A stretch of DNA of 64,000 nt. Source: Octopus vulgaris (taxonomy: Eukaryota). The DNA lies in assembly GCA_951406725.2 (NCBI GenBank), contig OX597831.1, positions 51,584,001-51,648,000 of the forward strand, in the 5' to 3' direction. Numbering within the stretch: the stretch's first letter is position 1; every line of letters starts with the position of its first letter. Below, one piece after another: positions 38,372 to 47,383 of this stretch. A program made the position numbers and the translations under genes. The notes beneath the pieces were generated by a model, which saw only the letters and a program-made list of their open reading frames with translations, was not told the DNA's origin and made no database searches.

Positions 38372-38658
38372 TCAAATTGCCGGACACTGTTTGCAAGGAG
38401 AGGTGTTGATGTGTTTCATCATACCGAGGAAATCATTACAGCTTCTGAAACTATACACATTATCTGTAGAACTATCAGATGCAATATCAGTTATTTTAAT
38501 CTTTTTGTTGGTAATCTGATCCCTCTTGATAATTGTTATTACAGACACATGTGCAACAGAGCGCAGTTTCCATGCCTCTCTGTAGTATGAAGAACGACAT
38601 GTTGATCGGCCATCTGTTATTAGAAGCACATCATATTTAATGCGTGTTTTGGATCCAT
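38372..38658 (-). CDS. Secreted VWA-like protein, last coding exon
   Basis: DGSKTRIKYDVLLITDGRS...CKQCPAI*; LLITDG is the hallmark VWA beta4 motif; total 1029 nt = 342 aa; AATAAA on minus at 38291-38296. Confidence 0.8.
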
Positions 38659-38914
38659 CTGCAAAGAAATAATGAAAATATTAAAAATCAAAAAAAATTA
38701 TAAAAATGTAAATAAAAAGATAATAACACAGACACAGGAATGGCAGTGTGATTTAGAATCTCTCTTTACAACCATATGTTTTTGGATTCAGTCCCACAAA
38801 TGCCTTGTATTATAGCTTGACCAATGTCTTGTGAGTGAATTTGGTAGTTAGAAACTGTATAGTTTATATATATATATATCATAGTTTATACACACACACA
38901 CACATATATATATA

Positions 38915-39270
38915 TAGGGTAAAAGGATAAAGACCCCCTTTGGTCATGAATGTCCATGGGATTGCACCTAGAAATTTCCCCTCTAAAGCACAAGTCTGGG
39001 TACGGTTGTTTTGTTTATGGAAGACCAGCAGTTGGCCATGTATACCAGCCTCTCCTATCCATGCCACTAATATTGTTCAAGGAAAAGGCAAAGGCAGATG
39101 CAGCTTAGCACCAGTGACATCGAAACTCATTTCCACAGCTGCTTGAACTGGAGCAATGTGAAATAAAGTGTCTTGCTCAAGAACACAACATACAACCTGG
39201 TCTAGGAATTCAACTCACTACCTCATGATTGTGAGCCCAATTCTCTGACCACTAAGTCATGCACCTTCAC
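38915..39270 (-). mobile_element. tRNA-derived SINE family C
   Basis: tRNA head followed by GTGTTCTTGAGCAAGACACTTTATTTC core; other copies at 18970-19760 and 61090-61255. Confidence 0.75.
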
Positions 39271-39529
39271 TTATATACATATATATATATATTCGCCATG
39301 ACAGATTGCTAGCCACTCTATTTTCTATTTTCTGTTTTCTTTCCCTGTTTATTTCTGTGTTCCTTTCTGTCAAAGAGTGTAAGCTCAAAGCATAAAAGAC
39401 TTTCTCACTTCCCGAGCATCAAACTAATACATCTGTTTGCAGTTTTCTTTTGTAAGTTCTCACATATATATATATATATATATATATATATATATATATA
39501 TATATATATATATATATATATATATATAT

Positions 39530-39930
39530 AATAATGAGGGAATATTATTCTAAACTTACAGGGAAAAATTCAATTTAGAAATACTAAATCAAATTTCACA
39601 AAATATAATATATATATATAAATTAGAAAAAAACCACCTTTTACCAATTCAATAATGAAAAATTAAATTATACCATTTAGAAAAATTACATATTATAGAA
39701 AGATTAAATATAAGATAAAACATATAACAATGATTAAGTAATGTGCAAAAAAGTAAATAAAATATATATGTTTTATTTACTTTTTTGCACATTACTTAAT
39801 CATTGTTATATGTTTTATCTTATATTTAATCTTTCTATAATATATAATTTTTCTAAATGTTATAATTTAATTTTTCATTATTGAATTGGTAAAAGGTGGG
39901 TTTTTTTCTAATTTATATATATATATATAT
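39530..39930. repeat. AT-rich (TA)n-embedded element with a ~150-bp-arm near-perfect palindrome
   Basis: Arms ~39612-39762 and 39771-39922; same family inverted at 59665-59880 and related at 53640-53705. Confidence 0.85.
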
Positions 39931-39984
39931 ATATATTGGTCAGTAGTTCAAATATCTGAAAAAGAAGCACACCTCTGGCCATTT

Positions 39985-40044
39985 GAGTCTGACGAGTTGC
40001 CTATACAGTTAAGTGCTTTATAGGTGTGAAACCAATGGTCACTC
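39985..40044 (+). ncRNA. Type I hammerhead ribozyme, canonical core
   Basis: GAGT-CTGACGA-(GCCTATA..TATAGGT stem II)-GAAA-CC aat GG-TC-ACTC; GUC cleavage triplet at 40038-40040. Confidence 0.8.
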
Positions 40045-40405
40045 TCTGACTAGCCATAACAATCAACCTTCTAAATATATGTATATATACAAGTGTGTGT
40101 GTGTATGTGTGTATTTATGACCTCAAGCCACCGCTTGAAAACTGATGTTGGTTTGTTTACATATTTGTAACTTAGCAGTTTGGTGAAAGAGACCAATAGA
40201 ATAAGTACCAGACTTTAAAAAAAGTATTGGAGTTGAACTGTTTGTCAGAAAAAATTGTTTAAAAAAACCCTCCAAAAACTTCAAGGCAACATAACCTCAG
40301 TCCAGTGACTGAACACACAAAAGATAAAGATACCTTGAAATGGTTGCAATAGTTTTTAGAAAATATTGGCAAACTTCTTATGAAGCCACGTAAGTAAGAA
40401 CTGAC

Positions 40406-44118: not shown

Positions 44119-44979
44119 CCACAATCCTTATCTTCAGCTCATCTTATCCACTGCTTGTGGACATAGTGTAGTGAACAAGAGCATTTGGTTAATGCAGAGC
44201 AATCACCTAAAGATTCTGAGTTCAATCTCAAGCAAGGGACTAAAGTGAATCACAAAATACCTGAAGAAGGCTGGTGTGTACAACAACTGAAAGATAGTGA
44301 ACACAAAAATCATGATGATGACACCAGTCTGACTATGTAAACAGGGTACATAATATAAAATTCCTCATCTCAGAAATATAGAATTGTATGTGCAATTACT
44401 ATGTCTTAGTCCATCGATTTATGTTTATTTGGTCAAGTTCTGAGATCGAATTAAGTGACAAGGATGTATTGGCGACATTGTTAGAGTTTTAAATGATAAA
44501 ATGCCTGTGATATTTCATAATGGCCCTTTATGTTCTGAGTTTAATTCCTGCCAAGGTCAATTTCGACTTTTTACCATTCCTTGGTCCATGAAATAAAGTT
44601 TCTGGTAAGTACTCAGTTTAGTTTATGAGGAGAAGTGAAGGGAGATGTCAGGACCGGAAGCAAAGGAGGAAGAGTGACATCAGGACTGGAAGTAACATCA
44701 GGTCAAGAAGCAGGGTATTTGAACATCCTCTTTCTTCATTAGGACATCGAAGGGAACAAACAGCTGGAAGAGATCTTGATGGGAGAGTAGTTTCTGGCTA
44801 GAGGTTGGGTTGCGTACATGTGTAGGTATGACCAGTGAGTCCTGCTGATCCTTGTGAAGTGAAGACGGGTACTAACTCCTGGTTTTATTTCAAGGTAAGA
44901 ACAATCTTATATCTGCTTTTCCTTCTACAGTTTAATACTTTAAGATATTCTATATGTCAATGGAATTTTGATAGAATGA

Positions 44980-45342
44980 GAAGAAGGCAGCAAGGAGGAA
45001 GAAGAGGAGGAGGAGAAGTAGGATGATAGTAATTGTAATAATAAGACAGAGGAGAAGAAGGTGAGAAGAAGAAGAAGAAGAAGAAAAAGAAGAAGAAGAA
45101 GAAGAAGAAGAAGACGAAGAAGAAGGTGAGAAGAAGAAGAAGACGAAGAAGAAGAAGAAGAAGAAGAAGAAGAAGAAGAAGAAGAAGAAGAAGAAGAAGA
45201 AGAAGAAGAAGAGGAAGAAGAAGAAGAAGAAGAAGACGAAAAAGAAGGTGAGAAGAAGAAGACGAAGAGGAAGGTGAGAAGAAGAAGAAGGTGAGAAGAA
45301 GAAGAAGAAGAAGAAGAAGAAGAAGAAGAAGAAGAAGAAGGA
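44980..45342 (+). repeat. Long imperfect (GAA)n microsatellite
   Basis: About 300 nt of GAA with recurring GGTGAGAA interruptions; intronic. Confidence 0.95.
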
Positions 45343-46329
45343 AACAACAACAATGATGACAATTATACCCATTCCCCTAATTTGAAGTGTCAGATATAAA
45401 ACTAGATTGATAAAAAGTGTAACTCTTTTGCCCAAACTGACCCATTTCTGGTATCATAGAAAAATGATATCAGAAAGGTAAAAATAAAAGAAAAGTCATC
45501 ATTTTAAGTAAGATAGAAAGAATGATGTAGAATGACGATGATGTATACAGGACTGTATTATTTGGACAATATGTTTTCTTCTTTTTTTTAAGACAATAAA
45601 TTGTGATTTGAGGGTGATTTGGTTGTTATTTCTAGCTGATTGACCACATAGAAGTTCCCTTGTTGGCTTTAGGATTAAATTTGTTGGTGGGAAATGGAAT
45701 GAATGTCACTGAACTTGTTTGACCTCTGCCCATTCCTGCTGAAGTTGAAAGGGTTAATACTCTATTGCAGTACATACTTCTGCTAATGAAAGGTAAATTA
45801 ATTCTAATTAACACATCTGTGATCATCATCATCATCATCATCTTCATTTAACATCCACTTTTCTATGCTTGTATGGGTCAGACAGAATTTGTCGAGACAG
45901 ATTTTCGACAACTGGTTGCCATTCCAGTTGTCAGGTGTCATCACCTGTTTTCAGGTAAGGCAATATTTTCCCATGGCCAAACACGTTTTTCGCAGAAGAC
46001 TGGAAACGAACAACATTGGTTGCATGATGGCAATGTTTGTTTATGACCACTATGTCAAGACAAGGGTATGCACAAACATACACATATGCACACACACACA
46101 CATGCACACACACACACATGCACACACACACACATGCACACACGTACACACAGACATGCACACACAAACAAACACACACACATGTATACACATACTCACA
46201 TGCATACACACACTCATATACACACACAAACACATGCATACATATGCACATGCATACACACACTCACATGGATACTTGCACACAAATACACTCATATGCT
46301 TACACACATGCACACACACATGAACACAT

Positions 46330-46552
46330 GAAGGCGATGAGCTGGCAGAAACGTTAGCACGCCGGGCGAAATGCTTAGCGGTATTTCATCTGCTGTTATG
46401 TTCTGAGTTCAAATTCCGCTAAGGTCGACCTTGCCTTTCATCCTTTCAGGGTCGATAAATTTAGTACCAGTTATGCACTGGATGTAATCGACTTAATCCA
46501 TTTGTCTGTCCTTGTATGTCCCCTCTATGTTTAGCTCCTTGTGGGCAATAAA
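46330..46552 (+). mobile_element. tRNA-derived SINE family B
   Basis: GAGCTGGCAGAAACGTTAGCAC..GAGTTCAAATTCC..GCCTTTCATCCTTTC core; copies at 32805-33175 (tandem), 36710-36910, 60600-60821 and 61633-61853. Confidence 0.85.
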
Positions 46553-46716
46553 AAAATAACACACACATGAACACACACACATGCATATATACACTCACCG
46601 GCACACACACACATGCATACACACGCACATGGATACCCACATTCATTCGCACACACATTCATTTAATCACAACTGTACCTTAGATATAAATAAATAAAAT
46701 AATTAATGATCTAAAT

Positions 46717-46971
46717 CAGTGCTTCTCAACGATTTTTTACCTTTTGACCCCTTTAATTCCCATTTTACTCAGATGGATCCTCTTAGCCATTCAATGTTTT
46801 AAAAAATCCTATTATATTTTTATAACTAAATATTATTTGGATATGTATAAAAAAATTGCCAAAATAATTTGTGTATTATAGAAATATAAGCAATTTATAG
46901 CACATAAATTTTAACACCAAAATCTTATATGGAACCCCAAGTGCCATATGGAACCTGGTTGAGAACCACTG
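46717..46971. mobile_element. hAT MITE
   Basis: CAGTGCTTCTCAAC / GTTGAGAACCACTG TIRs; TSD ATCTAAAT/ATATAAAT; partial copy from 18699. Confidence 0.7.
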
Positions 46972-47049
46972 ATATAAATAAATGTCAGCTGATTGATTGA
47001 TAGATTGATTAATTGATTGATAGATTGATTGATTGATTTTTCTGTTTAC

Positions 47050-47383
47050 CTTCAAAAAAGTTATGTCCATGATATTGAGGCTCATAAGACTTGTGTTGAG
47101 CTGCATGTTCAGGCTGCTTCCATAATCTAAAATAGCCCCACTCACCATTTAAAGAGAAATCTCCAAAGAATGAACCCTGTCGTGGATAACTGGGATATTG
47201 CCGGAAAGATTTCTGACGTGCAACCATTGGAGAGTAAGAGTTATTTCTGCCACCATAATTCCACAAACCATTGTCATTCCAGCCATCATATTGGGGGTCT
47301 TGATTGCCATAGCCGAAATAATCTTCACCAACAGATAGCGTGTGTGAGATGAGTGCTATTGTAATAATTCCTAGAGTCCACAT
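47050..47383 (-). CDS. Secreted VWA-like protein, coding exon 1 (signal peptide + G/Y/W/N-rich region)
   Basis: MWTLGIITIALISHTLSVG hydrophobic leader; TTCCAG acceptor at 47398, GTAAAC donor; 334 nt, ends phase 1. Confidence 0.8.

Follow-up and report, generated by a model that had tools for sequence, protein, structure and literature searches.

A spliced gene with at least five exons

VWA proteins number around a hundred in the octopus, so one more would be unsurprising; by our reading, PMC11291548 gives 111 for Octopus bimaculoides. The question raised by the present locus, on the minus strand of a 64,000-nucleotide window of Octopus vulgaris DNA (the whole stretch analyzed), is whether the exons described there form a gene and, if so, what a protein that joins an aromatic-rich N terminus to a VWA domain with an altered metal site might do. 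We find that the gene is real and spliced, and that it encodes a secreted-type protein with a single VWA domain of altered metal site.

The preliminary description had joined four exons in frame into 342 aa. The four coding exons and the protein length hold, but the gene has at least five exons. The coding sequence comprises 1029 nt on the minus strand (342 aa plus stop), and all three of its introns are GT-AG. The features, from 5' to 3', are as follows.

49416..49445, minus: 3' end of a non-coding 5' exon, seen as a 30-letter loose end at 47397 of contigs from runs X1 and X9
47050..47397, minus: first coding exon (aa 1-111), with 14 nt of UTR before the ATG at 47383; encodes the putative signal peptide and the disordered, aromatic-rich arm
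47327..47383, minus: putative signal peptide (aa 1-19), with predicted cleavage at SVG/ED
47050..47145, minus: 96 nt (aa 80-111) lost from the shorter isoform when an internal donor after 47146 is used
43587-43457 (131 nt), minus: second coding exon; encodes the pre-VWA helix (C122), the GKR-containing linker, strand 1 and DLSSQ
40682-40406 (277 nt), minus: third coding exon; covers the VWA domain from helix 1 through helix 4, including C176 and S230-C231
38658-38372 (287 nt), minus: last coding exon; ITDGRSTC (D263, C268), C321, CxxC 336-339, stop
38047..38371, minus: probable 3' UTR, from the 140-325 nt surplus in three contigs (length arithmetic); AATAAA at 38296

Splicing was read directly at the 5' junction, and the coding-exon junctions rest on reading frame, GT-AG borders, and database proteins. 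Contigs of four runs stop exactly at the edges of the first coding exon (coding part 47383-47050, 334 nt; acceptor CAG, donor AAG/GTAAAC). In three of the four runs a single contig spans this exon edge to edge, and in the remaining run two contigs that overlap do so. The contigs of two runs join a further, non-coding 5' exon: the first 24 letters of the loose end match the window once, at 49416-49439, where 0 matches are expected by chance, and the exon ends at 49416 with the donor CAA/GTAAGT. It might extend to about 49590-49640 if the 5' part of the contigs is one exon. Intron parts without contig cover, one of them in a repeat, were not used as evidence. None of the runs containing the gene is recorded as RNA, and four runs with the same label contain next to none of the gene's words; conclusions on expression or tissue draw on neither observation.

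Octopod orthologues

The protein shares 341 of 342 residues with Octopus sinensis LOC118766263 (XP_036365464.1/.5.1), RefSeq XP_036365464.1 differing at one. The O. vulgaris record CAI9736132.1 is 100% identical over 290 aa and begins at Met53, without the signal peptide, a truncated annotation that is corrected here. Orthologues in O. bimaculoides (LOC106881823, 95% identity) and Argonauta hians (GAB1605801.1, 74-75%) bear out a cephalopod-restricted form, with one match per octopod species in the protein searches on which this copy number is based. Over the VWA part, Argonauta shares 156 of 189 residues, and a distant, 48%-identical relative shares 110 of 188. The octopod records are all uncharacterized, but the earlier term "unrecognized" goes too far: the domain is named both by Pfam and by the UniRef title of the O. 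vulgaris record ("VWFA domain-containing protein").

Literature searches by topic returned no paper on this gene, and five of the orthologue accessions or gene ids, like the Argonauta locus tag, were uncited in the literature searched. Neither accessions nor peptides turned up in the readable portions of the supplementary files for the skin-mucus, ink, and posterior-salivary-gland proteomes of O. vulgaris, and the accessible portions of the supplements to PMC10138644, PMC10142993, PMC7693380, PMC9712504, and PMC4597212 gave no match to either. The available parts of PMC7333891 and PMC7656900 contain nothing on the family of the octopus VWA protein.

A secreted-type N terminus and an aromatic arm

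Hydropathy and a conserved cut motif fit the proposed signal peptide. The N-terminal hydropathy peak is 2.3, and the best 19-residue mean after it is 0.53, with no later hydrophobic stretch; E20 is invariant in all four aligned sequences, and the small-residue cut motif is conserved. No transmembrane or retention signal was seen in the sequence, and the protein is probably secreted.

The arm that follows (aa 20-111) spans 92 aa without a Cys and contains 24% F/W/Y, versus 5% in the VWA part. It had been described as ~95 aa rich in G, Y, W, N, Q, and F; the quoted peptide and the aromatic richness are as reported, but the arm is slightly shorter and its Gly richness is not conserved (12%, versus 4% in the distant relative, which retains 21% aromatic residues). 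The evenness of aromatic spacing is no different from that of shuffles.

With 11% D+E, the arm has no acidic tract, and the pI of the mature protein is 8.7, both of which count against a mineral-matrix protein (of statolith, stylet, or argonaut eggcase) in the manner of Pif/BMSP. Such a role would fit with the shell-matrix proteins that PMC11291548 includes among mollusc VWA proteins, and with the orthologue in A. hians. However, no chitin-binding or LamG domain gave a Pfam match at E 0.1, the non-VWA region is Cys-free, and passages on the argonaut eggcase proteome name VWC and LamG3 proteins but none with VWA alone. We consider this explanation very improbable, and for want of those two domains we find no support for a biomineral role of the Pif/BMSP kind.

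A VWA fold preceded by a conserved helix

Pfam VWA (PF00092) matches residues 148-322 at 39.2 bits (cut-off, 23.8; E 1.1e-9), the only family above its cut-off. The AF2 model, of moderate confidence (pTM 0.62, mean pLDDT 57), is disordered over residues 1-107 (pLDDT<50), with a helix at 109-129 and a Rossmann-type domain at 143-333. Its top Foldseek rows are PTMP1, von Willebrand factor A3, and factor B (E about 2e-8), and the VIA comparison with VWA structures gave Z 16-17.6 and an rmsd of about 3 A over about 170-200 residues, the top rows being tied. The VWA-like fold claimed earlier is thus upheld by HMM and by structure prediction, at Z about 17. Atlas matches were to generic VWA clusters only, and a homodimer prediction for aa 105-342 scored 0.00, which speaks neither for nor against a dimer.

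The pre-VWA helix is the best-conserved part outside the domain, with 15 of 21 residues identical to the distant relative versus 0 of 12 in the linker. This conservation, together with a helix in the same place in the Lottia model, would suit a regulatory or humoral protein in which the helix, like the alpha-L linker of zymogen factor B/C2, holds the domain closed, the protein serving either as a decoy or as a ligand-binding module unlatched by proteolysis. The zymogen chains of C2 and factor B align over 194-211 residues, into the pre-VWA part, versus about 170-177 for isolated VWA domains, and C2 is the best, non-significant match in a PDB sequence search (E 0.12). Yet the Z-scores are tied with those of other VWA domains, sushi and protease domains are absent, no conserved basic cut site lies between helix and strand 1, and the helix placement may be the predictor's recall of solved structures. 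On balance, we regard such a regulatory or humoral role as improbable.

A GKR just before the domain had been put forward as a cleavage or amidation site, in which case a precursor would yield a free VWA domain together with an amidated peptide from its N terminus. G-K-R does occupy 142-144 in all three named octopod orthologues, but PSI replaces it in the distant relative (P0031/P0012), gastropods have RPR, KPR, or IPR at the same place as an ordinary lead into strand 1, the strand begins at 143 in the octopus model, and there are no repeated peptides; the helix is probably tied to the domain through C122, upstream of the site. Given this lack of conservation and the position of GKR at the onset of strand 1, we rejected it as a processing site, and a precursor of this kind seems scarcely credible.

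An altered metal site whose Gln codon lies at a splice donor

The altered MIDAS (DLSSQ) and the retained ITDG are both present as first described. At the MIDAS positions D151, S153, Q155, S230, and D263, three of five canonical ligands are kept, and the pattern of MIDAS-bearing VWA domains of the integrin I-domain type (DxSxS...T...D) is absent. In an alignment of nine sequences (A3), the site reads DSQSD or DSQND in all five cephalopod rows and DSSTD in all four gastropod rows. The codon for Gln155 is the final codon of the second coding exon and the CAG of its donor, CAG/GTAAGA, a position shared by the distant relative (P0015, P0013, P0018). This overlap between a splice donor and the Gln codon that breaks the MIDAS is new here.

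From these residues, metal binding has probably been lost. Alternatively, the site could be remodelled rather than dead, with Asp151, Ser153, Ser230, Asp263, and the Gln side chain or a water holding a cation in a conventional metal-dependent adhesive VWA domain. The conservation of D151, S153, and D263 in 9/9 rows and of Gln155 in 5/5 cephalopod rows favors this view, but the Thr position varies (Ser, Asn), and the constancy of Gln155 is explainable by splicing because its codon is the CAG of the donor. The D151 and D263 positions, moreover, are also structural in VWA domains. We think a remodelled site unlikely.

The seven cysteines reported are confirmed (122, 176, 231, 268, 321, 336, and 339), but the CKQC called terminal lies at 336-339, three residues before the stop. 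The other three aligned cephalopod orthologues have eight. Disulfide pairing in the domain and helix is predicted to join 231 with 268, 176 with 339, and 121/122 with 321/336, which would leave one Cys free in O. vulgaris and O. sinensis.

A conserved alternative donor

The internal donor, ATG/GTGAGT, reproduces RefSeq isoform X2 (310 aa). An identical 32-residue difference separates P0031 from P0012 in the distant relative, where 8 of the 32 residues are identical to Octopus (3 of 10000 shuffles score as high). An alternative donor whose use drops these 32 residues, in Octopus as well as in the 48%-identical relative, is new here; it has been kept across very divergent species, and such retention usually signals function. 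RNA structure around both donors was unremarkable (z 0.01).

Gastropod relatives

Among 1.84 billion representatives there were 11 matches, and the five outside the close family were four gastropod proteins and one Lingula collagen-like protein. Judged by sequence, the nearest non-cephalopod kin found appear to be gastropod TSP1-like+VWA proteins with a mostly intact MIDAS, a relationship that is new here. This informal group, which has no family name, comprises Lottia LOTGIDRAFT_160181, Gigantopelta LOC121383628, Littorina V1264_015921, and Batillaria BaRGS paralogues, and shares with the octopus protein a single C-terminal VWA domain, a TDGxSxC motif, and an FExxF helix before strand 1. C176 (following helix 1), C231 (T-loop), C268 (following TDGxS), and C339 (C terminus) are invariant in 9/9 rows, as are F124 and F128, and the pre-VWA helix is present in the octopus and Lottia models. 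The three internal signature cysteines occur in all eight gastropod and all four cephalopod proteins tested and are absent from the Lingula protein. "Lineage-specific" is thus apt for the cephalopod-restricted form but not wholly for its origin, given that gastropod kin share the cysteine signature.

Per domain, a cephalopod profile scored six gastropod domains at 26-47 bits and four Lingula domains at 17 bits, and the cephalopod-gastropod profile-profile probability was 98.7. A gastropod-only profile, however, ranked two generic Lingula domains (83 and 81 bits) above the octopus protein (75), and a tree of 14 VWA domains, with only three groups, one outgroup protein, and a very long cephalopod branch, was uninformative.

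The differences are also considerable. Identity is about 20%; most gastropods keep DxSxS..T..D (P0037 has DASGG); and Batillaria has several paralogues, versus one match per octopod species. In place of the Cys-free aromatic arm of the octopus protein, several gastropod members carry a TSP1-like segment or a mucin-like region, and no TSP1-like segment was found before the octopus helix. The idea that the GEW segment is what remains of a TSP1 was rejected: of 12 local alignments with the gastropod segments, 11 scored no better than shuffles, and one stood at 31/1000.

A candidate matrix adaptor

Given its snail relatives, the protein is most likely a connective or secreted-matrix protein, and the matrix role first suggested is plausible. 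More specifically, we see about an even chance that it is a secreted, metal-independent, disulfide-stapled extracellular-matrix adaptor of cephalopods, drawn from a molluscan cysteine-marked VWA family. Signal cleavage would leave an arm that is disordered and rich in aromatic residues, its length varying by 32 residues with the donor used, and then a helix packing on the single VWA domain. Helix and domain would be stapled together by cysteines, four of them inherited (176, 231, 268, 339) and four particular to the cephalopod proteins (121, 122, 321, 336). Given Gln and Ser/Asn at two of the MIDAS positions, a partner (collagen or another matrix fiber) would be bound without metal, as by von Willebrand A1/A3, and the arm could supply weak multivalent stickiness.

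A bolder version, which we think doubtful, is a cephalopod-wide "latched pseudo-MIDAS": an intron gained at the third MIDAS codon would have fixed Gln and frozen metal loss, disulfides would staple an alpha-L-like helix, and the conserved splice switch of a 32-residue aromatic segment would tune assembly in a cephalopod-specific secreted material co-opted from a bivalve-byssus family.

Comparison with known systems

The 2015 octopus genome paper reportedly describes sucker-enriched VWA gene clusters. von Willebrand A1 and A3 bind collagen independently of metal with an imperfect MIDAS; A3 shares the octopus fold (Z 16.9-17.0), at about 16% identity within a giant multidomain protein, and no orthology is implied. 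Complement C2 and factor B give the longest structural overlap, pre-VWA region included, but carry sushi repeats and a trypsin domain, neither of which the 342-aa octopus protein has; their MIDAS is intact, and DCSQS was read in the C2/factor B sequence from the PDB search. Pif/BMSP, like the octopus protein, combine a signal peptide with VWA but add chitin-binding and in some cases LamG domains.

Closest in setting are the secreted molluscan VWA matrix proteins, byssal P-UF1 of Pinctada fucata and PTMP1 of Mytilus, the latter being the top Foldseek row. PTMP1 has two tandem VWA domains with MIDAS, whereas the octopus protein has one, altered. P-UF1, considered here through its listed homolog, is reported to keep its MIDAS, unlike the octopus protein. 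The Lottia member is that listed homolog (PMC4597212, Table 3; proteomics of pearl-oyster byssus), a byssus link two steps removed, as a best hit in the P-UF1 listing is not orthology. This small single-domain candidate for cephalopod soft-tissue or secreted matrix is noteworthy because it can be linked to a molluscan group that can be defined and that includes a byssus-associated protein, has traded its metal site for extra cysteines, and has kept an alternative donor across very divergent species.

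Gene model and transcripts

The gene confirms the original observation and now has an improved model. As the preliminary description proposed, four coding exons join in frame:

Coding exons of the gene under study (window coordinates)
47383-47050, minus strand, coding exon 1
43587-43457, minus strand, coding exon 2
40682-40406, minus strand, coding exon 3
38658-38372, minus strand, coding exon 4

In the window sequence the three intervening introns are GT-AG (phases 1, 0 and 1), and the joined 1,029 nt encode 342 amino acids and a stop. The quoted peptide, DLSSQ, ITDG, GKR and the seven cysteines are all present in the translation. 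The translation departs from Octopus sinensis XP_036365464.1 at a single residue of 342 and matches O. vulgaris CAI9736132.1 (P0010) at all 290, which fits O. vulgaris as the source of the window. The O. vulgaris record starts at Met53 and so misses the signal peptide, though contigs cover the upstream ATG. Identity is 95% with O. bimaculoides, 74 to 75% with Argonauta hians and 47 to 49% with a distant cephalopod relative from Logan contigs (P0008, P0012 and P0031). Three protein searches gave one gene per named octopod. At codon 10 (window 47356) the window and sequencing runs X1 and X2 encode Ala, and runs X9 and X15, like the records for O. sinensis and O. bimaculoides, encode Thr.

Among the 24 runs listed, 20 included part of the region of the first coding exon, and contigs of four runs, which we guess to be RNA, were placed on the window. 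A single contig spans exactly 47050-47397 in three of the four (0, 0 and 3 other letters), and two overlapping contigs span it in the fourth. These contigs extend 835 to 1,020 letters beyond 47050, where 695 coding bases remain. Because letters continuing at 47397 in X1 and X9 contigs map uniquely to 49416, where a donor (CAA|GTAAGT) is located, we add a fifth, non-coding exon; spliced RNA is the best reading of contigs that lack this 2-kb GT-AG intron. For the three junctions between coding exons the basis is splice signals, open frame and database proteins. If the non-coding exon is contiguous, in-frame stops lie upstream of the main ATG (47383), and the presumed 5' UTR exon also holds a 12-codon upstream ORF (49537-49499, minus strand), out of frame with that ATG.

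An internal donor after 47146 (ATG|GTGAGT) yields RefSeq isoform X2, which loses 32 residues. In the distant relative, P0031 and P0012 show a length difference of exactly 32 residues at the corresponding site; 8 of the 32 are identical to octopus, seven of these falling among the first ten, and 3 of 10,000 shuffles scored as high. Three placed runs assemble the long form, and the distant relative's short proteins occur on 36 and 4 contigs and its long one on 1, counts that do not equate to abundance.

Other features of the window

Several repeats lie within the introns. The last intron contains a 280-bp palindrome (39627-39906; 97% complementary, zero spacer); single arms related to it occur at 59724-59874 and 53601-53701, adjoining TA microsatellites. 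A MITE-like inverted repeat at 47423-47686 (76-nt arms, 95%) leaves 26 nt between its end and the 47397 acceptor, and a weaker one lies at about 42884-43069. Stop-free frames in the 5' UTR intron (47962-48940, plus strand) resemble broken LINE reverse-transcriptase fragments by eye, with no Pfam match at E 0.01. Elsewhere are a multi-exon DnaJA-type chaperone gene (2102-11200, minus strand; J domain, zinc finger, C-terminal domain and a CaaX ending, CASH) and a lone full-model-length 5S rRNA match (26321-26439, plus strand; 87.9 bits).

Protein architecture and the altered MIDAS

Residues 1 to 19 are signal-peptide-like by hydropathy, in keeping with the signal peptide proposed earlier, and no hydrophobic stretch follows. 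The arm (residues 20 to 111) is Cys-free, 24% aromatic versus 5% in the VWA domain, and disordered in the predicted structure; its N-glycosylation sequon at N47 is kept in four aligned proteins. A predicted helix (109 to 129) precedes the VWA domain. The VWA fold itself is backed by Pfam (39.2 bits, cut-off 23.8) and, in a model of moderate quality (mean pLDDT 57, pTM 0.62, 13 sequences), by Foldseek matches to PTMP1, vWF A3 and factor B at E about 2e-8 and by VIA Z scores of 16 to 17.6, with many VWA structures tied.

The altered MIDAS recurs in all five cephalopod rows as D-S-Q-S-D, with Asn fourth in Argonauta. Since the Gln codon closes its exon (CAG|GTAAGA), the splice-donor consensus, and not protein function, may explain why the residue is invariant. 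In the distant relative, fragments from genomic read-through (P0015, P0016, P0013 and P0018) break at the same place. The gastropod-type fragment P0038 carries DSSGS unbroken and diverges from the family close to where octopus has its last intron; the protein alone suggests that its gene lacks the intron at the MIDAS Gln. Residue 121 is Ser in O. vulgaris and O. sinensis and Cys in three other orthologues, so the odd count of seven cysteines is, judging by the alignment, derived.

Our preferred interpretation, to which we give about an even chance, is a secreted, metal-independent VWA adaptor: the disulfide-stabilised domain would act without metal, the disordered arm would supply stickiness, and the site of action would be connective tissue or secreted material. 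That the MIDAS is instead remodelled yet active seems unlikely. A latched, complement-like regulatory module, quite unlikely in our judgment, draws on alignments that extend further for the zymogens C2 and factor B (194 to 211 versus about 173 residues).

The preliminary interpretation finds partial support: its VWA assignment is borne out, and its GKR cleavage or amidation site is not. The three named octopods keep GKR. The distant relative has PSI instead, in a linker identical at 0 of 12 positions, and gastropods have RPR, KPR or IPR in the matching place; modelled strand 1 begins at residue 143. Given this lack of conservation and the position of the strand, we rejected GKR as a processing site, and an amidated-peptide precursor is hardly credible.

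Relationship to gastropod proteins

Searching 1.84 billion representatives with a profile (E 0.001) gave 11 matches: six in the close family, four gastropod and one four-domain Lingula protein. Further searching added Gigantopelta and additional Batillaria paralogues. C176, C231, C268, C339, F124 and F128 are common to the gastropod and cephalopod proteins in 9 of 9 aligned rows, and profile-profile comparison of the two sets gave a probability of 98.7 over 203 columns. The cephalopod profile scored six gastropod domains at 26 to 47 bits and four Lingula domains at 17, and with cysteines masked four of the six gastropod domains stayed above 22 bits; in the reverse direction, two Lingula domains outscored the octopus protein. 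A tree of VWA domains was uninformative on origin. Descent of the octopus gene from this gastropod-containing VWA group, which appears to be unnamed, is likely but not proven.

N-termini within the group are very different: the gastropod relatives P0034 and P0035 have either a mucin-like tract rich in Thr (758 aa, Batillaria) or a helical region together with a TSP1-like segment. That segment is weak in several gastropod members (Pfam E 0.004 to 0.009, below cut-off), and the octopus arm has no trace of it.

Comparison with known systems

The gene's accessions did not occur in the literature searched, nor did the readable parts of skin-mucus, ink and salivary-gland proteome supplements match it; the accessible argonaut eggcase literature names no VWA-only protein. 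PMC4597212 lists LOTGIDRAFT_160181 as the homolog of P-UF1, a VWA protein of Pinctada byssus that was detected there by LC-MS/MS and is reported to keep its MIDAS. PMC12817120 repeats this account and notes that P-UF1 has yet to be made as a recombinant protein. PMC11291548 reports many VWA proteins per mollusc genome, Lgi_160181 among those listed, and gives the shell-matrix proteins Pif/BMSP as VWA plus chitin-binding domains; PTMP1, from Mytilus, is described in PMC5435178. A mineral matrix role is improbable for the octopus protein, which is not a member of Pif/BMSP. Nor does it belong with PTMP1 or factor B/C2. It is a VWA superfamily member, and probably a derived variant of a molluscan group that appears to lack a name.
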